This document shows positions 8,105 through 43,013 of a stretch of 64,000 bases of DNA, piece after piece (positions within the stretch are counted from its first letter, which is position 1; the number at the start of each line of letters is the position of its first letter). The DNA is from Patescibacteria group bacterium (lineage in GTDB: Bacteria > Patescibacteriota > Microgenomatia > UBA12405). The stretch lies in contig JAHIPV010000020.1 of NCBI GenBank assembly GCA_018902845.1, positions 74,810 to 138,809 on the forward strand. Reading direction: 5' to 3'. The translations under genes and the position numbers were made by a program. Under the pieces are notes generated by a model. It saw only the letters and a program-made list of their open reading frames with translations, did no database searches and was not told the origin of the DNA.

Positions 8105-9913
8105 TTATTTTGGGAGGTTATGAGATCCCTCCACTTCGGTCGGGATGACAGAAGTTTGGTAGGCATAGAAGGTGGAAATATTATTAATTGGAGATAATTG
8201 TATTAATTTAGAAAAATCAGTTGATTTATCTATACCAAGGCGAATTATTTCTTGGTGTGAATAAATTACCAAAGTATTTTGTTGGCTTTTGATGAATTGG
8301 AAATCTGGTGCATGAAAGATAATGTTGTCGAGTTTTTCAATTTTACCTGTATCCCCTACTTGGTTTTTTGTCAAAAATGCTTGTTGTTGATATTTAAGAG
8401 GTGGATATTTTGAATAAAAAAGATAGTAGATGTATGGTTGGTTGTAGAAATCGGTAAAATATATATTGTCATATTTATTTTGATTTTTGATTAAATATTG
8501 AATTGATTCTTCGTAGCCGTATAAAAAGTCTTGAGGTGATTTTTTGGTCATATGGTTTAGGTATAGATCTGAATAGTAAAAAAAAGAGAAAAAATAGACA
8601 GTAATGAGCAAAAAGTAAAAAGTAAAGAAAATTGATTTATGACCGTGCCTACCGGCAGGCAGGTTTATGAAATATGATTTATGAATAAAACTTAAAAAAG
8701 AATTGAGGCCAAGAGAAATAAAGAAAACTATGGGGATGGAGAGGGACATGGTGCGGGTGGCTTGGATGGAATCACGGGTAAGAGAAGCGGGAATGGGGGC
8801 GATGAGAAGCCAGAATAGGAAGAAGATGGAAAGCGTTGAAAACGAAAGTGAATGAAAAATTCCAATGAGAAGAAAAATTATACTGGGGTAAAGAATAACA
8901 CCGATATAAGGAGCTGAGTGGCGGGGATTTTGCCAATCGCCTTGGAAAATAAGAAATTTAGGCGAAAAGTGATTAAAATAGCGGTTTAAAAAATTTCGTA
9001 GAAAAAAGATTGGTTGATTGTAAAAAATTTGATAGTCCAGTTTATTGCCTTCGGAGATAATTGTTTCAGTTTCTTGTTGGCTTCTGGGATAAGAAAAAAG
9101 ACTTAAGACTTTTAGACGATTAGTGTCAGATGAAAATAAGAGGCCATAAATAATGGGAAGGGAAAGAAGAAAGAGAGGAAGAATGAAGTGTTTTAAAAAT
9201 TTATTTTTGTTTTTTTGTATTTTCCCCCTGCGGGTGACTGCGTTGACATTTGTTTTTAAATTAATTGAAAACAAAATAAATATCAAAAACAGACTGATCA
9301 TTTTGGCTGACTGATAGGTGTATAGAGAAAGTGAAAAGGCAAGAGACGAGAGTAAAAAATAATTGTTTTTTTTAATGTTCCCCCTGCGGGTGACTGCGTT
9401 TTCGCTTGTGATGGCTTTGAAAAAAAAATAGGAAGCCAGAATTAATTGGAATGTAAGAATATTGGTTTCCCAGGCTCCCCTACTGTAGTGAATGTTGTAT
9501 GGATTGAAGGCTAATATCAGAGCTGATATTAGAGCTAAGTTGCGTGTTTTCTTGTTTTTGGGATTAATTTGGGTGATGAGCAAATACAAAAACAAAGGTG
9601 TTAATGAGCCTAAAATAATTGATGGCAGACGGACTGAAAGCGGATTAAGGCCGAATATGGCCACAAATGGAACAGTAAGATAGATATAAAAACCTGGTTT
9701 GTAGTCTCCAAAAGATTTAAAAATTAATGGCAAGAATTCACCATATTCGTCTTTGCCGGTTTTGAGAATTGAATAAGCGTTATAGCCGATAGCAGTTTCG
9801 TCCCAAAGTAAGGGTGGATACGAATTTGTTTTGTAAATTCTTATAAAAAAAGCTGTGAGGGTGATTAAAAGAAGGATTATTTTGGTTTTTTTATTCATAG
9901 GCAATGATTTCAA
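8105..9913 (-). CDS. GT39/ArnT-like GT-C membrane glycosyltransferase paralog
   Basis: WDETAIGYNAYSILKTGKDEYGEFLPLIFKSFGDYKPGFY..SVRLPSIILG. Two copies of the CCCCCTGCGGGTGACTGCG repeat are read as NAVTRRG (9234..9267, 9379..9410). The C-terminus EVEGSH comes from the repeat at 8117..8150. Confidence 0.7.
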   Translation of the reverse strand: MKSLPMNKKTKIILLLITLTAFFIRIYKTNSYPPLLWDETAIGYNAYSILKTGKDEYGEFLPLIFKSFGDYKPGFYIYLTVPFVAIFGLNPLSVRLPSIILGSLTPLFLYLLITQINPKNKKTRNLALISALILAFNPYNIHYSRGAWETNILTFQLILASYFFFKAITSENAVTRRGNIKKNNYFLLSSLAFSLSLYTYQSAKMISLFLIFILFSINLKTNVNAVTRRGKIQKNKNKFLKHFILPLFLLSLPIIYGLLFSSDTNRLKVLSLFSYPRSQQETETIISEGNKLDYQIFYNQPIFFLRNFLNRYFNHFSPKFLIFQGDWQNPRHSAPYIGVILYPSIIFLLIGIFHSLSFSTLSIFFLFWLLIAPIPASLTRDSIQATRTMSLSIPIVFFISLGLNSFLSFIHKSYFINLPAGRHGHKSIFFTFYFLLITVYFFSFFYYSDLYLNHMTKKSPQDFLYGYEESIQYLIKNQNKYDNIYFTDFYNQPYIYYLFYSKYPPLKYQQQAFLTKNQVGDTGKIEKLDNIIFHAPDFQFIKSQQNTLVIYSHQEIIRLGIDKSTDFSKLIQLSPINNISTFYAYQTSVIPTEVEGSHNLPK

Positions 9914-13247: not shown

Positions 13248-14954
13248 TTAGTCGTTGGCTATCGAAGTTTTGTAGATATAGATGGCTGGGGTTTGGGAGG
13301 TGGCGTAGGGATAGTAGATGATTTTGTCTATTTTGGTTGAGACAGGGAATTCTTCCGGTTTGCCGATTAAAATTGTGTCTGGTTCTAAACTATCGGCGGC
13401 AAAAGTTAATTCTCTAAATATAAAATTATCCAGTTTGTATTCACCAAGCTGATCCAAGAAAGATAATCCCTTTTCGTCATATTTAAGCCAATTTATTGAT
13501 TCTTGCTGAGTTAGTTTTGGTGCAATTTTCATAAAAAAAGAAGCATAGGCTTGTGGTTCTGAGAGTTTGCGGGAGTAAATTATCTGAGAAGGTTTTTCTT
13601 TTTGAACGTATTTTATGGCTTCTTTATGACCATAAAGCATGCCGTGGGCTAGAATTTGATTGCCACGATAAAAATAAGTGCTAAGAAAATCTAGATTATA
13701 GAAAATAAATATTGATGCCAAGAGAATTAAAGTAGCTTTTTTGATTTGTCTTTGAGAGATTTTTTGGTAAAAAAGATAAAGACCGGTGACAGAAAAAATT
13801 TGAATAAATGGAATCATGATTGAAGCCCGGTTTCCAAACATTTGGCCCTTAGCTAGAGTGGCGGGAATTGGAGTTAAAAGGATTAGGGGGAGTAAAAAAA
13901 GTAGTTGGGAGTGATAGATATTGTGCTTTTTTGAAAAAATAGAAGTTAGTGAAACGAGAAGTCCTAAAAACAAAAGTGGATTAAGGACTCCAAAACTTGG
14001 AATCATGCCGTAGTCGGTTTCTGAGGCCCCGTTTGTAAGTAAAAACTGGGGAGAGAAATAAGAAAAATAGTTTTGGAAAAATATTTTTGTTGTGTAGATA
14101 AACTTGTTGTTAAAAATTCTGCTAATTTGAGTTGGCAGGCCATTTTGAATAGTTTGAAATTGTTGGTCGGAAACAGATTGCCACTTGTCGGTAGGGTTAA
14201 ATATGACAATATCCGAAGTTCTGGTGGAGTTGGAATTAAAAAAGTTGATAGTAAGAAATAAGAAAATGACAGAATAGAAAACTAAATATGGTTTGAGGTT
14301 TGAGAATATTTCTCCCCCTTCGGGTGACTGCGCCGTTGCTTGCCTTTTTTTGTAAACGGAGATTAATATAATAACCAGAGGGACAAGGGCTTTGGTGGAA
14401 TGGTAAGAGAAAGAAGCAAGAATTAAAAGAATGGCTGAAATGATTAAATTTTTACAAGATTTTGTTGAATTGGTAGAGCGCAGAAAAAAGAAAAGGCCAA
14501 GAGAAACAAAAAATACGTGAAGATTGGCTTCAAGAGCCAACCGAGACATTGGCAGGTGCCATGGTGAAAGACTTAAAAAAAGGGCAGAAAGAAGTGGAAT
14601 GGCGATTGTTCGTTTAAAGAGTTGTTTGGTAAAAAGAAAAACAGCAATAATTGAGAGAGATGAAAATAGGGCATTAGGAAAACGGGCGGCAAAAGGTGTT
14701 AGGCCGAATAATTTTATTGATGGAATCATTAGATAAGTTTGTAGGGGCGGTTTAAAGTCACCAAAGGAACGTAAAGATAATGGCCAGGGAATTCCCCACT
14801 CGTCTTTGCCGGTGTTTAAAAGCGAATAAGCAGTATAGGCTTGAGCTAATTCATCGGGACTGTAGGAACTTGGTAGAGATTCAAGTTTGTAGAATCTAAG
14901 AAAAGTACCCAAAATAAATATTAAAAATAAAATGATGTATGATTTGCGATTCAT
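13248..14954 (-). CDS. GT39/ArnT-like GT-C membrane glycosyltransferase paralog
   Basis: SPDELAQAYTAYSLLNTGKDEWGIPWPLSLRSFGDFKPP..AARFPNALFS. There is an in-frame QSPEGG repeat at 14315..14345. Confidence 0.7.
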   Translation of the reverse strand: MNRKSYIILFLIFILGTFLRFYKLESLPSSYSPDELAQAYTAYSLLNTGKDEWGIPWPLSLRSFGDFKPPLQTYLMIPSIKLFGLTPFAARFPNALFSSLSIIAVFLFTKQLFKRTIAIPLLSALFLSLSPWHLPMSRLALEANLHVFFVSLGLFFFLRSTNSTKSCKNLIISAILLILASFSYHSTKALVPLVIILISVYKKRQATAQSPEGGEIFSNLKPYLVFYSVIFLFLTINFFNSNSTRTSDIVIFNPTDKWQSVSDQQFQTIQNGLPTQISRIFNNKFIYTTKIFFQNYFSYFSPQFLLTNGASETDYGMIPSFGVLNPLLFLGLLVSLTSIFSKKHNIYHSQLLFLLPLILLTPIPATLAKGQMFGNRASIMIPFIQIFSVTGLYLFYQKISQRQIKKATLILLASIFIFYNLDFLSTYFYRGNQILAHGMLYGHKEAIKYVQKEKPSQIIYSRKLSEPQAYASFFMKIAPKLTQQESINWLKYDEKGLSFLDQLGEYKLDNFIFRELTFAADSLEPDTILIGKPEEFPVSTKIDKIIYYPYATSQTPAIYIYKTSIAND

Positions 14955-16792: not shown

Positions 16793-17670
16793 TTTGAAGA
16801 TAACCAGATAATAAGTGTTAACAGATAATGCTTCAAAAGACCGTGGTAAATTTTTGAGCTGGGAATAAGTCGTCGCCATTGATTTTCGGAATTGCTTAAA
16901 CTTTTTCCACTAAGGCCGTGGTAGTGAATAACTTTGCATTGTGGATAACAATAAACTTGCTTGACTGATTTGTGTATCCGGCGACAAAGGTCGAGATCTT
17001 CAAAATACATAAAATATTTTTCATTCCATTTGCCGAGTTGATCAAAGAGTTTTTTTGATATAAGAAAAGCACCGCCAGAAATGGCGTAAACAGAGGAAGG
17101 GGTTGTATCCTTGGGTATATTTTTAGTAAAGGCATATTTTTGCCCAAGCCAAAATTCTTTAAATGCGTTTAAAATAGATTGTTTTGGAAAAACAGAGGCT
17201 TGTGGGGTTTTGTTTGGATTTAAAAATTGGGGGCCAATAGCCCCAACTTTGGGACTTTTTTGAAGAAATTGAAGCATATTGACAATAGAACTATCAACTA
17301 ATTTCATGTCTGAGTTAAGAAAAAGTAAATAGTCGCCTTTGGCTTTTTTAGAGGCTATATTGTTTCCTTTGGCAAAACCGAAATTCGAAGAATTTTGAAT
17401 TAATTGGATTTTTACGTCATTCTGAGGCGAAGCCGAAGAATCTCGTTGTTGTTTTTGCCGATTCCGAGGGGATCCTTCTCCCCCTTGCGGGTGATCAGGA
17501 TGACGATGTATAAGGGTTTTTTTGATTTGATTAACAGAATTGTCTGTGGAGGCGTTGTCGGCAACGATGATTTCGTGTTTAATGTCTTTGATATATTTAA
17601 AAATTGATTTAATGCAGTTTATAGTGGCTTTGGGTGTGTTCCAGTTGAGAATGATGATGCTAAGGTCCAT
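16777..17670 (-). CDS. Glycosyltransferase family 2 with an in-frame ~90-nt repeat insertion
   Basis: IIILNWNTPKAT..IVADNASTDNS..LFLNSDM GT2 motifs. The insert at 17415..17505 encodes HRHPDHPQGGEGSPRNRQKQQRDSSASPQND. Confidence 0.75.
   Translation of the reverse strand: MDLSIIILNWNTPKATINCIKSIFKYIKDIKHEIIVADNASTDNSVNQIKKTLIHRHPDHPQGGEGSPRNRQKQQRDSSASPQNDVKIQLIQNSSNFGFAKGNNIASKKAKGDYLLFLNSDMKLVDSSIVNMLQFLQKSPKVGAIGPQFLNPNKTPQASVFPKQSILNAFKEFWLGQKYAFTKNIPKDTTPSSVYAISGGAFLISKKLFDQLGKWNEKYFMYFEDLDLCRRIHKSVKQVYCYPQCKVIHYHGLSGKSLSNSENQWRRLIPSSKIYHGLLKHYLLTLIIWLSSKCHKK
17415..17505. repeat. Long family-B variant (CGTCATTCTGAGG..GAAGAATC + GGGGATCCTTC..CAGGATGACG) in-frame in a GT2 gene
   Basis: cgtcattctgaggcgaagccgaagaatctcgttgttgtttttgccgattccgaggggatccttctcccccttgcgggtgatcaggatgacg. 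Near-identical copies occur at 24335..24450 and 63373..63452. Confidence 0.9.
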
Positions 17671-17696: not shown

Positions 17697-20048
17697 TTAA
17701 TGACTATGGTTGGCGAGATTATTTGTTTTTGGAGTAGTTTTTTTTGATAGTAATATAAAAACTGATACAAGCATGATTGTTAATCCAATAATAAAAGCTT
17801 TGGGGAAATAATAAAATTTAATTGTGTGGGTGCCGGGTGGAACTAGAACTGCTCTAAAAGCGTGATTGGCTTGGTAGATTTGAGCGGACTGTTGGTCTAT
17901 TTTGGCTTTCCATTCCGGATAATAAGCATCAGAAAGAAGAAGAATCTGGGGGCAATTATTTTCTGTTTTTAGTTCTATGCTGTTTTCTTTGTCTGAGATG
18001 AATAAGATATTTGATATGTCAGGTTGGCAGTTTTTGATGTTTTCCAGTTTACTATTATCAGGCGCATTTTTTGAATAAAAAGCAACTAGATTTTTGTCGA
18101 ATTGGTTTGTTAAGATTTTTGCCATTTCGTTTTTTGAATTAACGACAATCGGGTTGTTGGTAAAACGGGCCCGAGATAGACTACTTTTGTTTTCGATTAT
18201 TTCTACTTTTTTTTCTGTAAAAACAGTGTCGAAGTCGGAGTGATTTTTTTCTTCTACATCGAAGAAATAATCTTTGTTGTGAAAAAGATATTTGACAGAC
18301 AAGGAATTAAAGAGAGAAGAGTTAATATTGGTGACTTTGCGGGCCCTAGAAGCGGAGTGGGGAAATTTTAGTTCTTGAGTTAACAAAAGATATTCATAGT
18401 TTAATAGTGGTACGGTGGCATCATAGCCGTCTGGAGATTTTAGTCCATATGGCATCCACATGTTTTCCGGAATAGTGCTTAGGGTTGCGATTCTGTCGTT
18501 GTTGACATTTTTTTGGACAAATTCTATTGATGGAGTAGTTGGAAACAAATATTTTGCTGGTGTGAAAGGTAGATATTTCCAGCCTAAATAAAAAAGTTCT
18601 GCGGTTGAAATAATTATGGTGATAGCCAGTAAAAAAGATTTGATGCCTTTATTTTTAAAAAAGTTTATCAGTAAAATAGAAAAAATAATTGGCAGACTAA
18701 AGAGGAGGCCATAAAGAGTATTTTTGAAGGCAACAGTAGAAAGTAATAAATTTGGTTTGAATTTTGAAAGTGACAATAAAAGTATTTGCCAGAAGAATAT
18801 GAGAAAAACAGGAATGATAATGTTGAGAAATTTGTTGGTAAACAGATTTTCTAGCAAATAAGCACCCAAAACAGAAAAGGCCAGATTGCTGATTACAAAG
18901 ATTCTAGTTGAGATTCCGTTTTTAGAAAAAATCAAGCCTAAGTGGTTTTTTAGAAAAATTGAGATTGGATTTGAAGTAGCCAGTAAAAAGGCGATGGGAA
19001 TGGAAAATAGGAAAAGTTTTGTAAGTTTGGATTTTTTGGGATCCTTCGGCAAGCTCAGGATGAGGCTGAAAAAAGCAAAGATGGCAAAAATTCCGGGATA
19101 AAAGGCATTGTTGTCGTAAAAACCTTTAGCTTGGTAATCATTGGTGGCTGGATTGCCCCAAAAATTTGGAGATATAGCCGTAAATAGATTTTCTGTGGGC
19201 AAGAAACCGCTGTTGGATGACTGGGCCGTGTTGTCAATTGAATGGATTGAACGAGAAATTAATTGTAAGCCGGGAATGAGTAATGGAGCGGCAAGAGCTA
19301 GTCCTAAGATGATATAGATGAAAAAATTTAATATTTTTTTGTGGTTTTTGTTTGAATGAAGGATTAAGAAATAAAATGTAATTAAAATTAACGAATAAAT
19401 GGAATATTGGGGGTAACCGCCATAAATTTGAAGAGCGATTAATATTGACATTAAAGGAAATTTCTTTTTTTCTATGGCAGTTAACATTAGCGGGAGAAAT
19501 GAAGCAACATAGGCATGGATTCCATATTCCAACCAGGTAATATTAAAAAGAGAGAAAGTGAAAATGATAGCACCCATAAGGGCGCTGGGGTTTTTGAATT
19601 TGATTGTTTTTAGGTAGATAAAAGCAGAGACAAGAGCAAAAAGTAACTGCAAATAAATCATTAATCCCCAAGCGGTAGTTGTCTTTATAGGTAAAAAAAA
19701 TGGAAGATTAGTAAAGTTGATAAGAGAATTTTGAAAATTAGCAAAAAGAGGCATACCCAAAAAATAGTACGGATTCCAAAAAGGAAAAACCTTTGATTTA
19801 ATTGCGTTTATAGCTGTTGTTCTCCATTGGTAGATTATAGAAACAATGTCTGACATTAACGGGTTTTTGATTGCAACACCGACGGCATTGCCCCATTTTG
19901 AGTTGAGCCAAGGATAGTACATGCCAACGGTAATATCGGCAGGAATTGGAATGAGTTTATATAAGAAAAATTTGTGAAAGAAAATAAAACTGAGAAGTAT
20001 GAGAAATATCGGTGGCCAAAAGTTGAAAGATTGTTTTTTAAATTTCAT
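17697..20048 (-). CDS. YfhO-like large polytopic membrane protein, a putative GT-C glycosyltransferase
   Basis: 783 aa with more than 12 TM helices. The N-terminal PADITVGMYYPW..FPFWNPYYFLGMP block resembles the YfhO family. The repeat at 19038..19064 is read as ILSLPKDP. Confidence 0.5.
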   Translation of the reverse strand: MKFKKQSFNFWPPIFLILLSFIFFHKFFLYKLIPIPADITVGMYYPWLNSKWGNAVGVAIKNPLMSDIVSIIYQWRTTAINAIKSKVFPFWNPYYFLGMPLFANFQNSLINFTNLPFFLPIKTTTAWGLMIYLQLLFALVSAFIYLKTIKFKNPSALMGAIIFTFSLFNITWLEYGIHAYVASFLPLMLTAIEKKKFPLMSILIALQIYGGYPQYSIYSLILITFYFLILHSNKNHKKILNFFIYIILGLALAAPLLIPGLQLISRSIHSIDNTAQSSNSGFLPTENLFTAISPNFWGNPATNDYQAKGFYDNNAFYPGIFAIFAFFSLILSLPKDPKKSKLTKLFLFSIPIAFLLATSNPISIFLKNHLGLIFSKNGISTRIFVISNLAFSVLGAYLLENLFTNKFLNIIIPVFLIFFWQILLLSLSKFKPNLLLSTVAFKNTLYGLLFSLPIIFSILLINFFKNKGIKSFLLAITIIISTAELFYLGWKYLPFTPAKYLFPTTPSIEFVQKNVNNDRIATLSTIPENMWMPYGLKSPDGYDATVPLLNYEYLLLTQELKFPHSASRARKVTNINSSLFNSLSVKYLFHNKDYFFDVEEKNHSDFDTVFTEKKVEIIENKSSLSRARFTNNPIVVNSKNEMAKILTNQFDKNLVAFYSKNAPDNSKLENIKNCQPDISNILFISDKENSIELKTENNCPQILLLSDAYYPEWKAKIDQQSAQIYQANHAFRAVLVPPGTHTIKFYYFPKAFIIGLTIMLVSVFILLSKKTTPKTNNLANHSH

Positions 20049-20965
20049 TCTTTAAACTTGTTAAAGATTTGTTTGTCTGTTAGTTTAGGAAAGACGATAG
20101 GGGGAAGGTGATTTTTAATTTGTCTTTTGGCAGCACGAATGATTTTTATATAATTGGGGCCAAAAGGAACTCTTAATGCGATGGCAATTTTGTTTGATGT
20201 TAAAAGTTTTGGATCTGTAATGTTTCTTAAGACAGTTAGCAATCGATTTCTTTCTTTAACATAAATCAAGAAGCGTTTGGGTAATTTTGACATAGTGCTT
20301 TGGTGTTTGTGATAGATTTTTGATTTTGGTTCCCAAATTAGCGTGTAACCTGATTTCCAGGCTCTATAACCTAAATCTAAATCCTCTGAGTAGCAGGGGT
20401 GATAAATATTATCAAAACCTCTTAACTTGGTAAAAATTGACTTTCTGATTATAGAGCCGCCTCCGGAAAGCCAGGCCGTAATGTGGGCTTTTGAGATTTT
20501 TTTTCCCGGTTCGTATTGCAAATAACCTTCCTTCCAAAAAATTCTGGCCCAATTTTCATTGCCTATTTCAGCAAATCCAACTCCAAAAAGTTTTGGATTT
20601 TTGAAATGGTGGAGTGAGTTTTTAATGTAATTTTTGGTAGGAGTGATGTCGTTGTTTAATAAAACCACTAATTCGCCTTTGCATTTACCGACGGCCATAT
20701 TTGAGTTAATAACGAATCCTTGGTTCTTTTTTTGGGTTAATAGTTTTATTTGTGGATGTTTTTTTTGCAGTTTTTTTAAAAAAATGTGGCTTTTGTCGGT
20801 TGATGCGTCGTCGGCGATAATAATTTCGGAGACTTGGGGACTATATTTGATTACTTTGGGAAGATTTTTTTTTAGGAGTTTTAGTCCGTTGAAGTTAGTT
20901 ACAATGAGGGAGATGGAAAAATTATGATTTTTTCCCCCTGCGGGTGACTTCGCTTTGCTTCGCAT
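20045..20965 (-). CDS. Glycosyltransferase family 2
   Basis: FSISLIVTNFNG..IIADDASTDKS..LLNNDI GT2 motifs. The N-terminal MRSKAKSPAGGK is derived from the repeat at 20934..20964. Confidence 0.75.
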   Translation of the reverse strand: MRSKAKSPAGGKNHNFSISLIVTNFNGLKLLKKNLPKVIKYSPQVSEIIIADDASTDKSHIFLKKLQKKHPQIKLLTQKKNQGFVINSNMAVGKCKGELVVLLNNDITPTKNYIKNSLHHFKNPKLFGVGFAEIGNENWARIFWKEGYLQYEPGKKISKAHITAWLSGGGSIIRKSIFTKLRGFDNIYHPCYSEDLDLGYRAWKSGYTLIWEPKSKIYHKHQSTMSKLPKRFLIYVKERNRLLTVLRNITDPKLLTSNKIAIALRVPFGPNYIKIIRAAKRQIKNHLPPIVFPKLTDKQIFNKFKE

Positions 20966-20968
20966 TTT

Positions 20969-22147
20969 TTAATTTATTATTTCTAATAATTTTTTTTCAA
21001 AGTTTTGTTTGGAAAATTTAGCGGAATCTTGTTGTGTTTGAACGGATAATTGTTCCATTAATTGCGGAGAACCGATAAGAAGTTGGGTTTTGGAAACCAA
21101 TTCGTCTATATCGCTCCAAAGGAAACCGTTTTTTCTTTCATTGATTATTTCTGGTAAACCACCCTTTTTTACCACAATTGGAATTGTTCCGGAAGCCATG
21201 GCTTCGACTACGGCCATACCAAAATGTTCGGTATTTTGGGGATTAATATTTTCGTCTACTCCAAAGCCTGCCGCATGCCAATAAATTTTGCTTTGGGAAT
21301 AAATTTTTTTGAGGGTGTCAAAATTTGGACCGATTAAAAATTCAATGGGAAAATTTTTGGCTTCATATTTTAAGTGTTTTAGGTAATTATTAAGCTCAGG
21401 TTTTTTTATAGAACCGCCGACCAAAATTAATTTCCAGTCTTTGTTGTTTTGATTTTGACTAAGTTTTTTGAAGGCTTTGATAAGAATATCCTGCCTTTTT
21501 TTGTTTAATATATTGTCAAATCTGCCAACCGATAAAATAATGTTTTCTTTTTTACCGGAGGCTGAAAATTTATCTGTATCTATGGGGGGGTATAACAGAG
21601 AGGATTTGTGGTGAAAGGTTTTTTTGAATTGATCTTGAGTGAAGATAGAATTGCAAATAATGTTTTTGTTTAAAAACAGTTTAAGTTTGTTGGCTATTTT
21701 GGTTTGAAAACTGAATTTGTTGGTAAAAGGAACTTGGCAGTGAAGAATGTTTTTTTTGGCAAAAAGAATTGGAATACTGCCATCGCTTAGATAGAAAAAA
21801 AGATTGTAATTGCGAGTAATCTTAAGCTTGTTTAGTAGATGTTTAACTTTTCCTAAGTTTGTACGTGTTTCTTTTTGTGTACTATTGATTTTTTTTAGTT
21901 GGCTGTGATCTTGGATTAAATCGATGTTTTGTTGGGGTTGACTAAAAATGTCGGGAACCAGATTGAGGTTTTCTAAATTTAGGGCAAATCTATCTTGGGC
22001 CTTGTCAATTAAATCTTTGTCTTTGGACCAAAATATATCAACTTGATAATTATGTTTTAAGAGAATTTCGGCGATAGTGAGCATGTAGCGCTCCCCTCCG
22101 CCGAGAGTGTCTAAGTAAGGATCGTATATGCCGACTTTTAATGGCAT
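20969..22147 (-). CDS. Glycosyltransferase family 4 (GT1-fold)
   Basis: C-terminal NTEHFGMAVVEAMASGTIPIV GT4 EX7E-type motif. Directly upstream lie a 4 x 8-bp tandem repeat and a TTAAGTATATATG box. Confidence 0.75.
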   Translation of the reverse strand: MPLKVGIYDPYLDTLGGGERYMLTIAEILLKHNYQVDIFWSKDKDLIDKAQDRFALNLENLNLVPDIFSQPQQNIDLIQDHSQLKKINSTQKETRTNLGKVKHLLNKLKITRNYNLFFYLSDGSIPILFAKKNILHCQVPFTNKFSFQTKIANKLKLFLNKNIICNSIFTQDQFKKTFHHKSSLLYPPIDTDKFSASGKKENIILSVGRFDNILNKKRQDILIKAFKKLSQNQNNKDWKLILVGGSIKKPELNNYLKHLKYEAKNFPIEFLIGPNFDTLKKIYSQSKIYWHAAGFGVDENINPQNTEHFGMAVVEAMASGTIPIVVKKGGLPEIINERKNGFLWSDIDELVSKTQLLIGSPQLMEQLSVQTQQDSAKFSKQNFEKKLLEIIN

Positions 22148-22164
22148 GAGTTAAGTATATATGC

Positions 22165-22196
22165 TGGATGACTGGATGACTAGATAACTGGATAAC
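22165..22196. promoter_or_regulatory. Tandem repeat, 4 x 8 bp of the same octamer family, upstream of the GT4 ATG
   Basis: ggatgact ggatgact agataact ggataact, preceded by gagttaagtatatatgct, which is nearly identical to the ftsX box. Confidence 0.6.
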
Positions 22197-22222
22197 TCGA
22201 AAGAAAGATAAAAATTAGGTAT

Positions 22223-23029
22223 TTATTTTATTTTTTGTTGGAGTTCGTAGAGGCGGGCGTAGATGATAAAAGTATTGAAAGTTTCAAAAATTACTGATAT
22301 CCAGCCAACTGTGCCGTCTTTCCACGCTTGTTGTTTGATTAAGCGAGTGTAGAAAGTAGTAAGCATCATACGGAAAAAACGCCACCAGACAACGGGAGGG
22401 TGGTTGGTTTTGTACAGAGCTTTGGCTTCCAATTCTGTCCATGTTATTGTTTTTTCTAACATTGAACTAAGATCAGAATGAGTGAAGTGGAGCAGGTCTG
22501 ATTTTAGATGGCCGATTTGACCTTTTATGATTGGCTCTTCGTGAACAGTTCCCTGCCATTTTTTTAATTTATCTTTTTTGAATAGTCTTTTGACATAATC
22601 GGGATAGGATCCGCCGTGTTTAACTCTTTTGCCTAAATAATGATTGGCTCTGGGAATGGCGTAGTAGTTGTGCGAGGCACGCCTCGCCCTTACACTTATC
22701 GTTTTTTGAATTTCTCTCTTTAACTGGGGCGTAACTTGTTCGTCTGTATCTATGTAAAGTATCCAGTCATTGGTGGTTAATTTTAGTCCCATGTTTCGCC
22801 ATTTGGCGTAGTGCTTGCCGTATTGATCGGTAGTAGTAATTGTTTTGGCTTGAGGAACAAGTTTTTGGGCAATTTTTTTGGAATTATCTGTAGAATTGGC
22901 AAAAACAATTATTATTTCGTTGGCCCATTTAATAGATTTGATGCAGTCCCCTATTGTGTTTTCAAAATTGCCACAGATGATGATGGTGGTTAGCGCGTTG
23001 TTGTGCTGGTTTTTTGTTTGTTTTGTCAT
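22223..23029 (-). CDS. Glycosyltransferase family 2
   Basis: LTTIIICGNFENTI..YIDTDEQ motifs; paralog of 5404..6213. The start codon is embedded in the 'tgtcat' terminus of the composite leader element 23024..23175. Confidence 0.7.
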   Translation of the reverse strand: MTKQTKNQHNNALTTIIICGNFENTIGDCIKSIKWANEIIIVFANSTDNSKKIAQKLVPQAKTITTTDQYGKHYAKWRNMGLKLTTNDWILYIDTDEQVTPQLKREIQKTISVRARRASHNYYAIPRANHYLGKRVKHGGSYPDYVKRLFKKDKLKKWQGTVHEEPIIKGQIGHLKSDLLHFTHSDLSSMLEKTITWTELEAKALYKTNHPPVVWWRFFRMMLTTFYTRLIKQQAWKDGTVGWISVIFETFNTFIIYARLYELQQKIK

Positions 23030-23175
23030 TTCGACTCCTTCGGCTGTACTCAGGATAAACTCCGTGGAGAAATCCCTGCCTGCCGGCAGGCAGGTCTGAA
23101 TTTATTTCAGAAATCCGCCTTTAGCGGATATCTCAGACAAGCTGAGAGATCCCTCGACTGCGCTCGGGATGACAA
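23024..23175. repeat. Composite ~150-nt 5' leader element abutting the start codon of GT2 22223..23029
   Basis: tgtcatttcgac...ggagaaatc...tgaatttatttcagaaatccgcctttagcggatatctcagacaagctgagagatccctcgactgcgctcgggatgacaa. Confidence 0.85.
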
Positions 23176-23182
23176 CTACTTT

Positions 23183-23458
23183 TTAATTACAAAGATCTTT
23201 GAACTTTGGATTTAATTTTTTAATTAAACTAATTTTTTTGTTTCTGTTCCAGTTTTTAATTTGTTTTTCTCTTGCTATTGCTTCATTAATGTTGTTGTAT
23301 TCTTCAATATAAATTGGTTTATTTATATTATATTTGGCAGTAAAGCTATTATGTTTTTTGAGTTTGTGTTCGAAATATCTTTTTTCTAGGTTGTTGGTAA
23401 CACCAGTATACAGAGTACCTGAATTATTGGTAAGAATGTATAAAAAATATGATTTCAC
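23183..23458 (-). CDS. Stand-alone GIY-YIG nuclease-domain protein (UPF0213/YhbQ-like)
   Basis: YFLYILTNNSGTLYTGVTNNLEKRYFEHK matches the GIY-YIG core. At 91 aa it is flanked on both sides by repeat elements. Confidence 0.65.
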   Translation of the reverse strand: MKSYFLYILTNNSGTLYTGVTNNLEKRYFEHKLKKHNSFTAKYNINKPIYIEEYNNINEAIAREKQIKNWNRNKKISLIKKLNPKFKDLCN

Positions 23459-23585
23459 TGATTAATTATACCCGTAAAGCTTATTTGGATGGTTATGAGA
23501 TCCCTCGGCTACGCTCGGGATGACAAAAGAGCTACGCTTCCTTCAAAGATGGACACATTGTAATTCGCAATGACAGGAGGTGGGA

Positions 23586-24626
23586 TTATTTCCAGCGGCC
23601 TTTGTTAAAGCGCTGAAGATAAAAGTCGATGATACCGCGTTTTTCCCAAGAATATTTGGAACTAAATAATTTTTCTACTGATTGGCGAATAATGGCCAGT
23701 TTGACTCGAAATGAAGCATGGCGCATGGCAAAAAGAAGTCGGTTTCTGGAGATAAAATAGTGATGCAAGTTTCCGCCCGTACCCGATGATTGAGCGTTTA
23801 AATGCCAAATTTTTGAATCAGGAATATAAGCAAGTTTATATCCTGCCTTTTTGGCCTTTTGGCAAAAGTCAATATCTTCCAGATACATGAAATATTTTTT
23901 ATCAAACAAGCCAATTTCTTTGAATAATTTTGATTTGACAAGCATACAACATCCGGAAATAAAGTCTATTTTAGTAGTGAATTTATTGAATTGACCTTTG
24001 TCAATTTGATCGACTCCAATGTTTGAGCCCAAGATATTGTCCCAATCCATGTAACCGCCGGCAGACCAGATGATATTACCCAGCTCATTTTTTTTGTATC
24101 TATTTTTGTGAAATTCGTAACCTTTGGCAAAATAGATTTTGGGTCCCAATATAGCCAGTTTGGGATTTTTTTGGGCGGATTTTAATAAAATTTGAAGAAA
24201 ATCAGGATCAACCAAAACGTCATTGTTGATTACTAGAATATAGTCAAAGTTTTCTTTTAAGGCTTGTTTGATGCCAAAATTGTTGCCGTTGGCATAACCC
24301 AAGTTTGAAGAGGTTTGGAGAATTTGGATTTTTACGTCATTCTGAGGCGAAGCCGAAGAATCCCGTTGTTGTTTTTGCCGATTTCGAGGGGATCCTTCTT
24401 CGCCGGTCGGCGAATCAGGATGACGGTGGGAAGGATCAGGATGGCGGTGTGTGAATTTATTAAATAATTCGATTGAATTATCGGTGGAGGCGTTGTCAAC
24501 CAAAAAGATTTTGTAGTTAAAAGAAGTATGCTTAATTTTAAGAAGAGATTTAATAGTTTGGATGGTGAGCGCGGGCTGATTCCAGTTAAGAACGATGATG
24601 GCAATTTTAGTTTTATTTTTTGTCAT
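23586..24626 (-). CDS. Glycosyltransferase family 2 with an in-frame repeat insertion
   Basis: IAIIVLNWNQPALT..LVDNASTDNS..VINNDV motifs. The start ATG at 24624..24626 is the terminus of the composite leader element. The insert at 24335..24450 encodes HRHPDPSHRHPDSPTGEEGSPRNRQKQQRDSSASPQND. Confidence 0.75.
   Translation of the reverse strand: MTKNKTKIAIIVLNWNQPALTIQTIKSLLKIKHTSFNYKIFLVDNASTDNSIELFNKFTHRHPDPSHRHPDSPTGEEGSPRNRQKQQRDSSASPQNDVKIQILQTSSNLGYANGNNFGIKQALKENFDYILVINNDVLVDPDFLQILLKSAQKNPKLAILGPKIYFAKGYEFHKNRYKKNELGNIIWSAGGYMDWDNILGSNIGVDQIDKGQFNKFTTKIDFISGCCMLVKSKLFKEIGLFDKKYFMYLEDIDFCQKAKKAGYKLAYIPDSKIWHLNAQSSGTGGNLHHYFISRNRLLFAMRHASFRVKLAIIRQSVEKLFSSKYSWEKRGIIDFYLQRFNKGRWK
24335..24450. 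repeat. Long family-B variant in-frame in a GT2 gene (paralog of the 17415..17505 insert)
   Basis: The same ~60-nt 5' half as 17415..17505, followed by ggggatccttcttcgccggtcggcgaatcaggatgacggtgggaaggatcaggatggcg. Confidence 0.9.
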
Positions 24627-24728
24627 TTCGACCAAAGTGGAGAAATCTCTGAATTTATTTCAGAAATCCGCTTTTGGCGGATATCTCAGACAAGCCGAGA
24701 GATCCCTCGACTTCGCTCGGGATGACAA
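24621..24728. repeat. Composite ~108-nt 5' leader element; its 'tgtcat' terminus supplies the GT2 start codon
   Basis: tgtcatttcgaccaaagtggagaaatctctgaatttatttcagaaatccgcttttggcggatatctcagacaagccgagagatccctcgacttcgctcgggatgacaa. Confidence 0.9.
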
Positions 24729-24730: not shown

Positions 24731-25663
24731 TCAAAAGTTTTTGGTTAGGCGGTTTAGTAAATGGCGAAATTTAATAAAGACTGATTTAAATATATTACCG
24801 GCTTTTTCATCAGCAAAATATTTAGCAAACCAATGACTATATTCATAGGTGGCCTGCTGACTGGCGGAAACAAATGATTCTTTGGGTAGATTTTTTTCTT
24901 TAAAGCCCCTTTTTTCCCAAATTCTTATATAAATAAGACATTCAGAAAAAGCTTGAAGTAGGGCAAAAACAAGTCCGTGAATACCGTCTTTGTATCCCTG
25001 AGAGGCAAAAAAACGGCTGTTGAATTCTTGGGTAGGTTTTAGAATAAAATCGGAAAGTTTAAGTTTGTGTTGTTTAGAAATTAATTCTTCCGCTTGTACT
25101 TTTGTATAACGAAGCATGCGGTTAAGATAACTGGTTATAGTGGGATAGTTGTTGTGTCTAATGGCTAGTTTTTCTGTGTCTAGTATCGTGATTCCATTGC
25201 CTTTTGTTTCAGGTTGACTGTGTATTTCTTTGTTCCATTTGACAGCGCCTTTTTTGAAAAAGCGAATTAAGTAGTCAGGCCATGAACCTGAGTGGCGCAT
25301 CCATTTATTAAAAACTATATTTTTTCTCGGGATTCTGACAAAATCGACATCGGTGCGGTTGGTAATTTTTTGAAGTTCTCTTTTGAGAGTTTTGGTAATA
25401 TATTCGTCGGGATCAAGTAATAGTATCCATTTTCCTTTTGCTTTTGATAGAGCAAAATTTCTGGCCGGTTCAACACATTTCATATAACGATGTTGAAAAA
25501 CTTTGGCGTTGTGACTTTTGGCAATTTCGACAGAATTGTCGTTAGAGTGCATATCTATAAGAATGATTTCATCGGCAAAATTTTTGACAGATTTGAGACA
25601 TTTAGAAAGATACTTGGCATCGTTGTATGTATTGATGATTACTGATATTAAAGGTTTGGGCAT
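24731..25663 (-). CDS. Glycosyltransferase family 2
   Basis: ISVIINTYNDAKYL..ILIDMHSNDNS..LLLDPDE motifs. Confidence 0.75.
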   Translation of the reverse strand: MPKPLISVIINTYNDAKYLSKCLKSVKNFADEIILIDMHSNDNSVEIAKSHNAKVFQHRYMKCVEPARNFALSKAKGKWILLLDPDEYITKTLKRELQKITNRTDVDFVRIPRKNIVFNKWMRHSGSWPDYLIRFFKKGAVKWNKEIHSQPETKGNGITILDTEKLAIRHNNYPTITSYLNRMLRYTKVQAEELISKQHKLKLSDFILKPTQEFNSRFFASQGYKDGIHGLVFALLQAFSECLIYIRIWEKRGFKEKNLPKESFVSASQQATYEYSHWFAKYFADEKAGNIFKSVFIKFRHLLNRLTKNF

Positions 25664-37193: not shown

Positions 37194-38492
37194 TTACTGC
37201 ATGTGGAGGTATAGAGTCATTTTGCCGTCGGGATGAAAAAGTTTGACGTGGTTGCCTAAACTGCTTGACGGGTTTCTAAAAAAGTAGGCAACACCTTCGT
37301 TAATAGCCAAAATCGTTCTGTTTGATGAAACAAGGTCAATACCGTGGTGGAATTTGTCACTGTAGAGATAAGCATACTTAGTGACTCCCCTGCCTTGAGT
37401 TATTTCGAAAGGATTATTTAAAGGCCAACCATATTGATTAATATATTCCTGCGCGTCTATGTCATTAAAATAACTCCAAACAGAAAGATTTTCTTCTTTA
37501 AGTTGATAAAGACCAAAGTGTAAGTGTGTACCACAATCAGGGCACGTGGGGGATGGTGGTGGAAGAGAAAATCCGGTATTGCCCATTATTCCCAAAGGTT
37601 CACCTTTGCTAACTTGTCTTTTTCCAACAAATTTAGCTTTTAAAAGAGCGCTTAGTTCTTGTTCTGCCTCTGATTTTAGTTTTTGGTAGGTTTTTTCGTC
37701 GTTTTTGGTAATAGCCAAAAGATTGTCTTTGGCTGCTTTTTGTCCAATCAATTCCTTTTTTTGTCTGTCCAGGGTTTCTTGAAGGTTGGCCAGTTCTTCT
37801 TGTTTTTGTTCTTTTTTTTGTTTTTGAATATCATAGTTAGTCCTGACTGTTTCCAGGTTAAGCATGGTTTGCTGGTTGGCTTTTTGAAGAACCTGAATAT
37901 ATTTATATTGTTCAAAGAAGTGGTTAAAGCTTTTGGAGGAAAAAATACTAATGGATGGAATTTTTTTACTTATTTTGTAATTTTCATTGACTTGGCTCAA
38001 AAATAAACTTGATAGCTTGTTTAGATCAACATCAAGTTTATTAATTTCTTGTGTCAATTCGATAATTTCTTTTTTGAGAATTTCTATAGATTGTTCTATT
38101 TGAGAAATTTTTAGAGAAGTCAGCTGAACCTGGGAATTAAGATAGTTGATTTGGTTAGAAAGAGTGTCTTTTTCTTTGGAAAGTTGAATTAGTTTTTCTG
38201 TATATTGGTCTATTTTGTTTTGAATGTCGCCAGGAGTGTTTTGAGCTTGAATGGAAAAAGAAAAAAAGAAAAAGAAAATGAGAGATAAAAATAAAAAAAA
38301 AGCTTTTTTAAAGTTCCGACGGGATTGCCACGTCGTCACGTAATAAATTAAGAAATTTAAACGTGATTTCCTCGCAATGACAGGTGTATCATACTTGCGG
38401 GCGACCGCAAGGGTCGCCCCTACAAAAAACTGGCGCAATGACTGGATGTGATGCTTGATACTGGTGATTATTTTATTCACCCGTTTTATCAT
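37194..38492 (-). CDS. Coiled-coil M23 (LytM-domain) metalloendopeptidase, likely the FtsEX-coupled cell-separation hydrolase
   Basis: C-terminal M23 motifs HLHFGLYQ and HHGIDL after a long coiled coil. It overlaps ftsX by 4 nt (operon ftsE-ftsX-M23). The N-terminal ~55 aa are encoded by repeat modules (38316..38442). Confidence 0.7.
   Translation of the reverse strand: MIKRVNKIITSIKHHIQSLRQFFVGATLAVARKYDTPVIARKSRLNFLIYYVTTWQSRRNFKKAFFLFLSLIFFFFFSFSIQAQNTPGDIQNKIDQYTEKLIQLSKEKDTLSNQINYLNSQVQLTSLKISQIEQSIEILKKEIIELTQEINKLDVDLNKLSSLFLSQVNENYKISKKIPSISIFSSKSFNHFFEQYKYIQVLQKANQQTMLNLETVRTNYDIQKQKKEQKQEELANLQETLDRQKKELIGQKAAKDNLLAITKNDEKTYQKLKSEAEQELSALLKAKFVGKRQVSKGEPLGIMGNTGFSLPPPSPTCPDCGTHLHFGLYQLKEENLSVWSYFNDIDAQEYINQYGWPLNNPFEITQGRGVTKYAYLYSDKFHHGIDLVSSNRTILAINEGVAYFFRNPSSSLGNHVKLFHPDGKMTLYLHMQ
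38316..38442. repeat. Composite repeat (GGGATTGCCACG..GCAATGACAGG module plus the family-A hairpin) inside the N-terminal coding region of the M23 gene
   Basis: ccgacgggattgccacgtcgtcacg ... cctcgcaatgacagg ... gcgggcgaccgcaagggtcgcccctacaaaaaactggcgcaatgac. Confidence 0.85.
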
Positions 38493-39358
38493 TTAATATA
38501 TCTTCTAACTCCTACAAGACTGGCAAGATAAGAAATGGTTACTCCGGCTAAATTGGCAATGCCTAGGATTTTTAGATAATAATTTAAATCAAACCGGATA
38601 AAGGTAACGGGTTTAAAAAAGTTGTTAATATCGTTAGCAAAATGATAGGCCAATAAAGAGGCGATAAGCCAGCCGATAAAAGATCCAAGGATGCCATAAA
38701 TTATCCCTTCAAGAAGGAAAGCTTTTTTGGTATAAAACCTGGAGGCTCCCAAAAGGCGACTGATTTTAATTTCGTCTTTTCTGTTGGTAATTTTCATGCC
38801 TATAATGACAGAAATTACGAAAAAGGCCAAGGTTGCCAAAACGGAAACGAGAATAATTCCAAAACGGCGAATATTGTTAGTCCAGGTTATCAAAGATTGA
38901 ACAACATCTTGTTGATAGATTATTTCATCGACTATGTCTTTTTTTTGGCTGAAATTTTGAGCAATTTGTGAAAGAATATTTGGATTTAAAGCTGAAATTT
39001 CAAAAGATGCCGGTAAAATACTGGCAGTAACCATTTCAGTTAGCATTTGGTTATCCTTGTTTTGTTCTTTGTAGATTTCCAAGGCTTTTTCTTTTGAAAT
39101 AAACCTGATTTCTTTTAGATCTGGATAGCTACTGATTTCTTTTTGAATTGATTCAACGGTGTCTTTATCAAGTCCGTCTTTTAGGAAGATAGTGATTTCT
39201 GGTTTTGATTCAAAAAATTTTAGAGTAGAAGACAATCCGGAGCTAATGATATAGAAAGCGGAAAAGACAAAAAAACTGAAGGCTAAAGTGCTTATGGCAG
39301 CTAAGCTTTGAAACGGAGATCTTCTGATGTGGTGCCAGGTGGTTTTAGAGGTGGACAT
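38489..39358 (-). CDS. ftsX: Cell division permease-like protein FtsX
   Basis: 289 aa with an N-terminal TM, a periplasmic domain and C-terminal 3-TM FtsX architecture; downstream of ftsE. Confidence 0.7.
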   Translation of the reverse strand: MSTSKTTWHHIRRSPFQSLAAISTLAFSFFVFSAFYIISSGLSSTLKFFESKPEITIFLKDGLDKDTVESIQKEISSYPDLKEIRFISKEKALEIYKEQNKDNQMLTEMVTASILPASFEISALNPNILSQIAQNFSQKKDIVDEIIYQQDVVQSLITWTNNIRRFGIILVSVLATLAFFVISVIIGMKITNRKDEIKISRLLGASRFYTKKAFLLEGIIYGILGSFIGWLIASLLAYHFANDINNFFKPVTFIRFDLNYYLKILGIANLAGVTISYLASLVGVRRYIK

Positions 39359-39376
39359 GATTTAAGTATATATGTT

Positions 39377-39424
39377 GGATGACTAGATGACTAGATGACT
39401 GGATGACTGGATGACTGGATGACT
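39377..39424. promoter_or_regulatory. Variable-number tandem repeat, 6 x 8 bp ([A/G]GATGACT), in the ftsE-ftsX intergenic region 19 nt upstream of the ftsX ATG
   Basis: ggatgact agatgact agatgact ggatgact ggatgact ggatgact, preceded by the conserved box gatttaagtatatatgtt. Confidence 0.6.
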
Positions 39425-40107: not shown

Positions 40108-40202
40108 TCTTGGTAAAAGCTGGTAAATATTTCCATGTAAATTATTATTTTTTTTATTTTGTGGTTATGAGATCCCTCGACTTCGCTCGGGATGACAGAG
40201 GG

Positions 40203-42892: not shown

Positions 42893-42900
42893 AAGTGTGT

Positions 42901-43008: not shown

Positions 43009-43013
43009 GTTGG

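Follow-up and report, generated by a model that had tools for sequence, protein, structure and literature searches.

How a repeated element comes to stand at the very start of genes is the question raised by a 64,000-nt stretch of DNA from a Patescibacteria group bacterium (GenBank assembly GCA_018902845.1, contig JAHIPV010000020.1, positions 74,810 to 138,809). This whole stretch, called the window below, carries five copies of a composite element of roughly 105 nt that lies directly ahead of genes and ends in an ATG; the copy at 24621-24727 precedes a GT2 glycosyltransferase gene. An earlier note proposed that the element is a portable 5' untranslated region and start-codon cassette, possibly with a promoter or a regulatory RNA structure. 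Our analysis indicates that it is instead very probably a non-coding DNA repeat, namely a tags-outward dimer of hairpin modules that carry an unpaired CGTC or TGTC tag and are cognate to a small GIY-YIG single-stranded-DNA nuclease. The terminal ATG is a by-product of the conserved tag and not a designed cassette, because it is the reverse complement of the tag plus the first bases of the stem (TGTCAT). It matters in this organism because genes are packed end to end (the window is about 93% coding, with a G+C content of about 35%) and Shine-Dalgarno motifs are rare, being found before only 5 of the 49 window genes.

Structure of the composite elements

All five sites reported earlier were recovered, with boundaries that differ by 1-2 nt from those first given. 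The 28-nt left motif of the element matched the window at nine positions with no more than three mismatches, all on the - strand, whereas 0.00 matches were expected. The composite copies and the parts of copy 2 are listed below.

23024-23174, - strand: composite copy 1; ends and spacer hairpins as in copy 2, plus an extra hairpin at 23075-23094
24621-24727, - strand: composite copy 2 (the element first noted); a tags-outward ("head-to-head") heterodimer whose spacer holds three small hairpins
24699-24727, - strand: left module A of copy 2, TGTCATCCCGAGCGAAGTCGAGGGATCTC
24648-24700, - strand: spacer of copy 2, about 50 nt with three hairpins
24684-24700, - strand: spacer hairpin 1 of copy 2, TCTCGGCTTGTCTGAGA
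24666-24682, - strand: spacer hairpin 2 of copy 2, ATCCGCCAAAAGCGGAT, an untagged AT..AT palindrome
24648-24664, - strand: spacer hairpin 3 of copy 2, TCTGAAATAAATTCAGA
24621-24649, + strand: right module of copy 2, with the tag TGTCATTTCGACCAAAGTGGAGAAATCTC; its complement ends in GTCGAAATGACA
42901-43007, - strand: composite copy 3, before prfB
45516-45609, - strand: composite copy 4; both end modules as in copies 1-3, spacer different
55062-55187, - strand: composite copy 5; heterodimer in which the module subtypes (ATTCC type for the left module) and the spacer hairpins are both different

The termini of the composites are inverted copies of one 29-nt module type, giving the terminal inverted repeats TGTCAT...ATGACA, and the tags lie on the outside in all five. 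In left module A, a TGTC tag leads into a 5-bp stem that begins with an A-T pair; tandem G.A pairs and a single covarying pair come next, before the loop, and the stem is followed by a C. Left and right modules agree at 22 of their 29 positions. Left module A (TGTCATCCCGAGCGNAGTCGAGGGATCTC) and the inverted right module (GAGATTTCTCC..GTCGAAATGACA) are common to copies 1-4, and the right module of copy 1 (23024-23076) has a nested module-like insertion in its loop. The three spacer hairpins are common to copies 1-3 only. The single architecture that had been described for all five sites is thus correct for the end modules of copies 1-4 and for the spacer hairpins of copies 1-3, but does not extend to the spacer of copy 4 or to the modules and spacer of copy 5. 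Copies 2 and 3, which occupy unrelated loci, are 95% identical over 108 nt.

The composites lie between co-directional genes and take up the whole intergenic space, with upstream stop codons 3, 3, 6, and 8 nt ahead of the element and flanks of GCT/AAA, AACC/ACA, GTT/AAA, and AGT/AAA. Copy 2, for example, follows the stop of GT2 24731-25663 and precedes the start of GT2 23586-24626. Five further assemblies of this locus (L002-L006) contained identical elements throughout and therefore offered no presence/absence contrast; such contrasts came from related genomes, as described below.

A widespread family of tagged hairpin modules

The module is far more common than the composites. A simple scan of the 64 kb found about 36 modules and a wider scan about 40, with the consensus YGTC-ATYYY-GA-(short stem-loop or nested hairpin)-GA-RRRAT-C. 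Every window module begins with YGTC, and the two sides of the outer stem change in step (ATCCC/GGGAT, ATCCT/AGGAT, ATTCT/AGAAT, ATTCC/GGAAT, ATTTC/GAAAT, and ATTGC/GCAAT). About half of these modules lie in frame within long open reading frames (ORFs), and both orientations occur.

Covariation was measured in 80 distinct 25-nt modules from the window and other genomes, which were chosen without regard to pairing. Stem positions were paired in 92.7% of cells, compared with 72.3% in shuffled sets, and cells with changes on both sides numbered 126, compared with 43; none of 500 shuffles reached the observed value, and the signal collapsed when the register was slid. The arms are 9 nt long, with tandem G.A at positions 6-7 and a loop of 4-6 nt or a nested hairpin; pair 1 is A-U in 71 of the 80 modules and pair 2 is U-A in 76. 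Positions G2, T3, and C4 of the tag were invariant, although GTCAT was itself the selection criterion for this set. Because pairing and double changes are far above those of the shuffles, the module hairpin is kept by selection. Covariation had been suggested as a check on the hairpins, and it is indeed strong; however, it belongs to a DNA repeat family whose cognate protein is reported not to bind RNA (PMC11893778), and so it does not speak for a regulatory RNA.

Module A was also found without its right partner, either by itself or beside different partners, at five more places (6910, 8122, 23497, 40169, and 49866), as listed here.

6910-6938, - strand: module A outside composites, followed by 21-nt tandem half-module tails (6921-7001)
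8122-8150, 40169-40197, and 49866-49894, - strand: module A outside composites, found as motif matches
23497-23525, - strand: module A ahead of the nuclease gene, with a CATAACC..CCAAA leader behind it

The same CATAACC..CCAAA leader is common to the module A copies at 23497, 6910, 8122, 40169, and 45581. The element is not a dedicated leader cassette; the earlier proposal had missed the inverted module ends, the occurrences of module A outside composites, and the roughly 40 related modules.

Beyond this organism, the 26-mer of the right module (GATTTCTCCNNTTNNGTCGAAATGAC) was found verbatim in at least 120 stretches (L007-L126) from many bacterial phyla, with hosts in Bacteroidota, Patescibacteria, Verrucomicrobiota, Chloroflexota, Clostridia, Spirochaetota, Planctomycetota, Acidobacteriota, Proteobacteria, and others. 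Among the matches listed, an inverted partner was often present 35-50 nt away. That a non-coding 26-mer is shared verbatim across phyla implies that it either has spread horizontally or is very tightly constrained by its cognate nuclease. A search of full-text literature with the motif string matched only coincidences with primers, and literature searches on GIY-YIG proteins with transposable elements and on YhbQ/COG2827/UPF0213 found no mention of repeats.

Several further observations concern the modules themselves. Clusters of three modules lie in frame within two paralogous GT2 genes (24261-24428 and 17341-17508); the cluster inside GT2 23586-24626 encodes HRHPDPSHRHPDSPTGEEGSPRNRQKQQRDSSASPQNDV, and a sister species has a single, different module at the equivalent site. 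At 6921-7001, the tandem tails each consist of the 3' half of a module plus the tag, with a period of about 21 nt, and ACTTCGCTCGGGATGACAATA is present in at least three full tandem units. Half-module tandem tails also occur in unrelated phyla (L010, L038, L043, L079, L107, and L119), which suggests that repeated events may take place at the tag side of the hairpin. A hammerhead-like reading of the CUGA...CGAA bases of the module was rejected by eye, since the core is incomplete.

Association with a GIY-YIG nuclease gene

One module-flanked gene in the window provides a candidate partner for the repeats.

23183-23458, - strand: Ssn-like GIY-YIG nuclease gene, 91 amino acids, single domain (Pfam PF01541, E 1.4e-13)

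The catalytic residues Y7, Y17, R27, and E64 are conserved in an alignment with six relatives. Module A lies upstream of the gene and composite copy 1 downstream, and copy 2 is 1.2 kb away. Because modules of the same kind as in the composites enclose the window nuclease gene, the composites resemble relatives of a module-nuclease-module unit that lack the gene, as far as their arrangement can tell. An NCBIfam scan of the window nuclease gave no match.

Among the 120 listed stretches that share the right module, six contained a GIY-YIG homologue, which adjoins the searched module in four; modules were present on both sides of the gene in five of the six and only upstream in the sixth. An independent test was then made in the opposite direction. 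Seven GIY-YIG proteins were aligned, and metagenome contigs were scanned by protein only, yielding 80 loci (L127-L206). A module was located within 200 nt upstream of the gene in 57 of these (71%) and within 250 nt downstream in 51, and 36 (45%) had the inverted bracket of a forward module upstream and a reverse module downstream. Module density was 4.56 per kb beside the gene and 0.22 per kb at more than 400 nt from it, a 21-fold difference, and the two flanking modules of one locus were usually of the same subtype. Relatives that are 54-58% identical to the window nuclease (L175, L200, and L201) are flanked by hairpins that match the published pattern for Ssn-related motifs (SRMs), HGTCWYN(0-2)YYVSBRHN(0-5)WNVSBRGN(0-2)RNCYNB. 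Together with the conserved catalytic residues, these hairpins lend indirect support to a putative assignment of the window nuclease to Ssn, and activity of the window nuclease on the modules as single-stranded DNA is predicted by analogy.

These results also bear on whether the element might be an ordinary miniature inverted-repeat transposable element, an insertion sequence (IS) derivative that relies on a DDE transposase from another locus. Its terminal inverted repeats (about 29 nt), its size of about 100 nt, its several copies, and the 95% identity of two copies at unrelated loci would all fit such an element. However, its ends are themselves hairpins with covarying stems, they belong to a pan-bacterial family that brackets GIY-YIG and not transposase genes, the four junction pairs examined have no target-site duplication, and no transposase was found to be associated with CGTC repeats (PMC3733652). 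We consider this origin extremely improbable.

Points that weigh against a nuclease-cognate DNA repeat should be set beside this evidence. The published degenerate SRM pattern had no match in the window on either strand (shuffle mean 0.08) and matched in only 4 of the 80 GIY-YIG loci. The only solved relatives of the window nuclease (the nearest are 1zg2 and 1ywl) are UPF0213 proteins, a subfamily neighboring Ssn (CDD cd10448). The compared junctions have no target-site duplication, save a 5-nt GAAAT ambiguity at one. That Ssn units behave like insertion sequences is a proposal (PMC11893778), and mobility of the repeats in this organism is likewise a prediction from sequence comparison. Finally, the window counts come from 64 kb and a few related contigs and are not genome-wide. 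The first of these points can be explained by the tandem G.A positions of the stem, which the SRM pattern does not allow. The window modules are a tandem-G.A subclass outside the published operational definition of SRMs, and in our metagenome sample this subclass dominates the nuclease-flanking hairpins of this protein subfamily.

Start codons and the histories of the junctions

The terminal ATG of the element is in frame with, and is the first possible start of, GT2 22223-23029, GT2 23586-24626, and the C39-like gene 44730-45521. Independent gene calls use the element ATG for both GT2 genes and for the 91%-identical C39 orthologue in L211, and the Pfam domains of the two GT2 proteins begin at residues 16 and 8, with no other start codon upstream. 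The statement in the earlier note that ATGACA begins these three genes is therefore sound at the level of reading frames, and the ATG is the only usable start in each. Whether the element donated it is a separate matter, and the answer differs from gene to gene.

The clearest case is GT2 23586. Copy 2 is absent from the orthologous junction in four relatives (L208, L213, L214, and L215), where the GT2-310/GT2-346 junction reads TAA(0-3 nt)ATGACT(AAA/TCC/TCA)(A/G)T(T/C)GC. The window has TGA-GCT-[element ending ATGACA]-AAAAAT-AAAACTAAAATTGCC, and the ancestral start position is occupied as follows.

24612-24614, - strand: AAA codon at the ancestral start position of GT2 23586; relatives have ATGACTAAAATTGC and the window has AAAACTAAAATTGC

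The protein now begins four codons upstream, at the copy 2 ATG (24626-24624, - strand), and only the last 6 nt of copy 2 are translated. Three residues precede the IAIIVLNW block in 102 of 120 homologues and seven in the window protein only; the 4-residue N-terminal extension is likewise confined to the window protein among the 120. These results support capture of the GT2 23586 start codon from the repeat, with the ancestral ATG decayed to AAA. Donation of a start codon by the element is thus upheld at this gene, where the ATG of four relatives is AAA and the sole usable start belongs to the element.

In contrast, the start of GT2 22223 was not donated. Its start sequence ATGACAAAACAA is present in two relatives without the element, where it overlaps the upstream stop as TGGAAATGACA, so that the ATG (23029-23027) is ancestral and coincides with the copy 1 tag. 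The insertion at this junction is larger than the composite: 23028-23587 is a 560-nt block made up of a degenerate module, module A, the nuclease gene, and composite copy 1, and it is absent from relatives, in which the junction is the stop/start overlap TGGAAATGACAAAAC. The GT2-346/GT2-268 junction reads GGTAGCTGGAAATGACAAAACAAACAAAAAACC in L208 (82% identical orthologue), with the upstream stop overlapping the ATG of MTKQTKNQH, and TGGAAATGACAAAACAG in L210 (61% identical). The window has TGGAAAT-[560 nt]-GACAAAAC, the block ending in GTCGAAAT. Both neighboring proteins are unchanged by the insertion, and the 5-nt GAAAT is repeated at both junctions of the block.

The C39-like gene is intermediate. 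The terminal ATG of copy 4 (45521-45519) is its first possible start, and the 91%-identical gene in L211 has the same element in the same place. The L212 gene (87% identical over 77%) lacks the element, starts with a TTG 4 nt past the upstream stop, and has a different N-terminus. Start capture at this gene is plausible but unproven from such comparisons.

At the prfB gene, the copy 3 ATG opens an upstream ORF (uORF) encoding MTTHL* (42906-42889), whose UGA overlaps the native prfB AUG (42892), exactly as had been reported. The empty site in L212 reads TAA-CTAGCCC-ATGACTCAA, and the window junction reads TAA-CCAACC-[element]-ACACACTT-ATGACCCAA; the native prfB start is retained, and the element ATG yields only the uORF. 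The copy 5 ATG lies about 170 nt before serS and starts no gene.

Taken together, the proposed donation of start codons stands for GT2 23586, fails for GT2 22223 (ancestral start), and is plausible but unproven for the C39-like gene; at prfB the ATG gives a uORF only. As a general property of the module it was rejected: among 136 copies in other phyla, the module ATG opened an ORF of 100 codons or more in 4, compared with 0 and 5 in the other two frames, and there was no excess. A further candidate for start capture was the tryptophanyl/tyrosyl-tRNA synthetase-like ORF 58914-60131 (+ strand), whose first in-frame ATG is the complement of a module tag (58886-58918) and whose 5' extension crosses the module and a GTAG-type repeat. 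It was rejected as a probably spurious extension, since the Pfam domain begins at residue 59, and it warns against taking every tag ATG as a start. As far as the aligned relatives show, the insertions entered junctions that elsewhere have a 0-7-nt gap or a 4-nt stop/start overlap.

Promoters, transcript folds, and translational coupling

If the element were selected as a cassette for the downstream gene, it would be expected to act at the level of transcription or RNA. The promoter and terminator scan was at or below shuffled expectation, with 5 promoter-like sites against 6.2 expected, so that the promoter once suspected within the element is not supported. Rfam gave no hit at gathering thresholds in the whole window and only chance-level hits, with E up to 1, at 42800-45700 (copies 3 and 4). 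RNA folds of copies 2-5 each produced one long hairpin closed by UGUCAU:AUGACA, with energies of -50.4, -47.6, -35, and -53 kcal/mol and z from -6.2 to -3.9 (z -6.2 for copy 2).

A portable leader with its own promoter or regulatory RNA could draw on the element ATG being the only usable start of three genes, on its having taken over from a lost ancestral ATG at GT2 23586, on the different N-terminus of the C39-like protein in an element-free relative, and on a transcript-strand fold far more stable than shuffles (z -6.2). These features are outweighed by the rest of the evidence. The GT2 22223 start is ancestral, copy 5 and the prfB copy start no gene, the promoter-like count is below expectation, module A is found with other partners, about half of the related modules lie inside ORFs or in other contexts, the same module occurs in other phyla without any association with ORFs, and the known partner of the family is a single-strand DNase that does not bind RNA (PMC11893778). 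With no promoter signal, no Rfam match, and an ATG that is a by-product of the tag, we judge that a cassette of this kind is improbable.

A somewhat better, but still unlikely, alternative is that the primary selected role of the element lies at the RNA level, as for classical repetitive extragenic palindromes (REPs) and bacterial interspersed mosaic elements (BIMEs), through stabilization of the upstream mRNA segment or as a coupling device that exposes the AUG solely upon translation of the upstream gene. In the folded composites, the 5' tag and the AUG pair with each other at the foot of a hairpin of -35 to -53 kcal/mol, and the upstream stop lies 3-8 nt before the foot of the stem, between co-directional genes. 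The ancestral junctions were stop/start overlaps or zero-length gaps, so coupling probably predates insertion, and Shine-Dalgarno motifs are rare in this genome. A terminating ribosome would, by inference only, open the stem and expose the AUG, which could account for the tolerance of insertions at junctions that overlapped before. This role is, however, wholly a matter of modeled folds, and the same modules are found in either orientation, within genes, and, whatever the gene context, across many phyla. Coupling would then be a consequence tolerated or exploited after insertion and not the cause of the existence of the repeat.

A DNA repeat cognate to the nuclease, which we prefer, would account for the junctions in the following way. 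Spread of the repeat would depend on the nuclease acting on single-stranded DNA, and insertion would favor tag-like sites (AAATGAC). One insertion landed with its tag on the ancestral ATGACA start of GT2 22223; one landed 6 nt upstream of, and in frame with, the GT2 23586 start, whose decayed ATG was later replaced by that of the element; and one landed out of frame before prfB, giving rise to the uORF. In the mRNA, the long hairpin may hold the upstream stop and the downstream AUG together, and translation of the upstream gene could melt the stem, so that the translational coupling of the two genes is kept.

A possible target preference

The junctions also suggest a more speculative proposal, which we offer tentatively and regard as doubtful at present: that the nuclease unit and the gene-less dimers are still mobile and integrate preferentially beside mimics of the tag and stem foot (GTCATTT, or AAATGAC on the other strand). 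In this organism, the mimic would typically be found where stop and start codons overlap as ATGA or where an operon gene begins with ATGAC. Such a native site would become, or adjoin, the element tag, and the paired ends would keep stop and start together; translational coupling would survive the insertion, and the tag ATG could later be captured as a start codon.

In all three cases in which the ancestral state of an insertion could be read, a native ATGAC is close by, at distances of 0, 6, and 8 nt; about 10% of window genes start with ATGAC. Of 136 modules from other phyla, 29 (21%) had an extra ATGAC no more than 40 nt beyond the tag, compared with 3.9% of control windows; many of these are tandem tails of a half-module with its tag, like those at 6921-7001. 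Insertion or recombination directed by resemblance to the tag would fit this proximity to ATGAC. The numbers are small, and selection for insertions that spare both genes could contribute. If true, the proposal would provide the first junction-level evidence on how CGTC/SRM repeats spread and a GIY-YIG-dependent analogue of the behavior of IS200/IS605 or of REP doublets forming hairpins (REPINs).

Other features of the window

The window is strongly asymmetric: 46 of 49 long ORFs are on the - strand, and the GC skew of the + strand is +0.14 to +0.37, the coding strand being C-rich and G-poor. A second repeat family, of the GTAG REP type (GTAGGGGCGACCCTTGCGGTCGCCCGCA, - strand), has 10 near-identical copies, sometimes within an 88-nt unit; an eleventh row is only 65% alike. 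The copies were located by repeat comparison.

2012-2037, 4268-4293, 38398-38423, 44696-44721, and 47475-47500: GTAG-type REPs
48724-48749, 52762-52787, 58941-58966, 60163-60188, and 60420-60445: GTAG-type REPs

A further repeat family with TTCCCCCTKCGGGTGACTKCGC was found at 20920-20974, 44601-44655, 5201-5255, 7512-7566, 9366-9420, and 14300-14354. It overlaps the 5' end of at least two genes. GT2 20045-20965, whose domain begins at residue 19, takes its N-terminus MRSKAKSPAGGK from the repeat, and the cyclophilin 44008-44655, whose domain begins at residue 77, likewise takes from it a portion of a long N-terminal extension. Runs of an 8-nt unit (AGTYATCC, - strand) followed by AGCATATATACTTAAnTC occur at 22145-22200, 39356-39419, and 48596-48659, directly before the ATG of 20969-22147 and 38489-39358 and, as a divergent copy (61%), before 47585-48604; this region may be a common promoter or operator. 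Compared with L212, the window carries a 544-nt insertion at 43460-44003, made up of a HicB-like/HicA toxin-antitoxin pair (43702-43974 and 43467-43694); HicA also begins with ATGACT.

Significance and comparison with known systems

The element is explained by a repeat family described in 2013 and tied to Ssn nucleases in 2025, and it does not represent a new class of leader or regulatory RNA. Its abundance in a Patescibacterium (about 40 modules in 64 kb, about half of them intragenic and in frame) fits the reported enrichment in symbionts; high repeat loads in symbiotic bacteria are described in the Ssn study (PMC11893778). Published SRM counts are probably underestimates, because the search pattern misses the tandem-G.A subclass. 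Filled and empty sites were obtained both for a gene-less dimer and for a nuclease-bearing block, and these sites, with the tandem-G.A subclass, bear on whether and how the repeats move. GT2 23586 provides a clean case of a repeat tag captured as a start, the start-codon counterpart of GTAG repeats that donate TAG stop codons. Such stop donation is described in the CGTC REP paper, which does not mention the complement of the CGTC tag as a start codon (PMC3733652).

The modules are of the kind known as CGTC-type REPs or SRMs, and their arrangement is BIME- or REPIN-like. CGTC-tagged REPs were defined by Di Nocera, De Gregorio & Rocco 2013 and include Neisseria dRS3 and Rickettsia RPE-4/RPE-6. 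They have a CGTC or TGTC tag, an 8-9-bp stem that starts with A-T and then T-A, a 4-5-nt loop, and a short tail. Most are tags-outward (HH) dimers with conserved 20-100-bp spacers in which small stem-loops are possible, and they lie close behind upstream ORFs, with some intragenic copies and "no dedicated transposase" (PMC3733652). The window modules share the unpaired CGTC/TGTC tag, the A-T/T-A start of the stem, and a short unpaired tail that begins with C. They likewise form tags-outward dimers, whose spacer of about 50 nt is conserved in copies 1-3 and carries small hairpins, and they lie just past upstream ORFs, between co-directional genes, or in frame within genes. They differ in the stem, which in place of a plain 8-9-bp helix has 5 bp, tandem G.A, and then 1 bp or a nested hairpin, and in the host, a Patescibacterium, whereas the CGTC REP paper covers five other phyla (PMC3733652).

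The link to the nuclease comes from Neisseria, in which NTS (CGTCATTCCCGCGMAVGCGGGAATCYRG) and related SRMs flank Ssn GIY-YIG genes, as reported by Chenal et al. 2025. The NTS/SRM hairpin is CGTCATTCCCGCG..GCGGGAATC with a conserved HGTCAT 5' flank. SsnA binds this hairpin only as single-stranded DNA, cuts it a few nt 5' of the tag, and is inactive on double-stranded DNA and RNA; the critical bases are the three before the palindrome and the C after it. The NTS-ssnA-NTS arrangement was likened to an insertion sequence and to REPs with their REP-associated tyrosine transposase (RAYT), a proposal and not a demonstration, and Patescibacteria, start codons, and intragenic copies are absent from the paper (PMC11893778). 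The HGTCAT 5' flank, the AT-first palindrome, and the C after it recur here, as does a single-domain GIY-YIG protein bracketed by its own hairpins (91 amino acids here, about 94 for Ssn). Among Ssn homologues, 71% had at least one SRM nearby and 42% were flanked on both sides (PMC11893778); our corresponding values are 71% (upstream, within 200 nt) and 45% (inverted bracket), under slightly different criteria. Unlike SRMs, the window modules do not fit the published degenerate pattern, and the pairs of filled and empty junctions in the window and its relatives go beyond that study.

Like REPIN-RAYT systems and BIMEs, the composites are hairpin repeats with an unpaired tetranucleotide, and their inverted doublets fold into one long hairpin; as in REPIN-RAYT systems, a single cognate gene is flanked by repeats and many copies are gene-less. 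The tag, however, is TGTC/CGTC and not GTAG, and the enzyme is a GIY-YIG nuclease and not an HUH tyrosine (Y1) transposase. Correia elements of Neisseria, to which the earlier note had likened the composites, are also about 100-150 nt long, have terminal inverted repeats, and lie next to genes; they are co-transcribed and can alter the expression of neighbors. The likeness does not hold further, since the ends here are tagged hairpins of another family, there is no TA duplication, and promoter hexamers are not above shuffles; no search for an integration host factor site was made. Finally, like Rickettsia palindromic elements, related window modules lie in frame within glycosyltransferase genes and add peptide segments. 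The N-terminal extension of GT2 23586 also derives from a repeat, as in the Rickettsia elements, but the composite that gave rise to it is itself intergenic.

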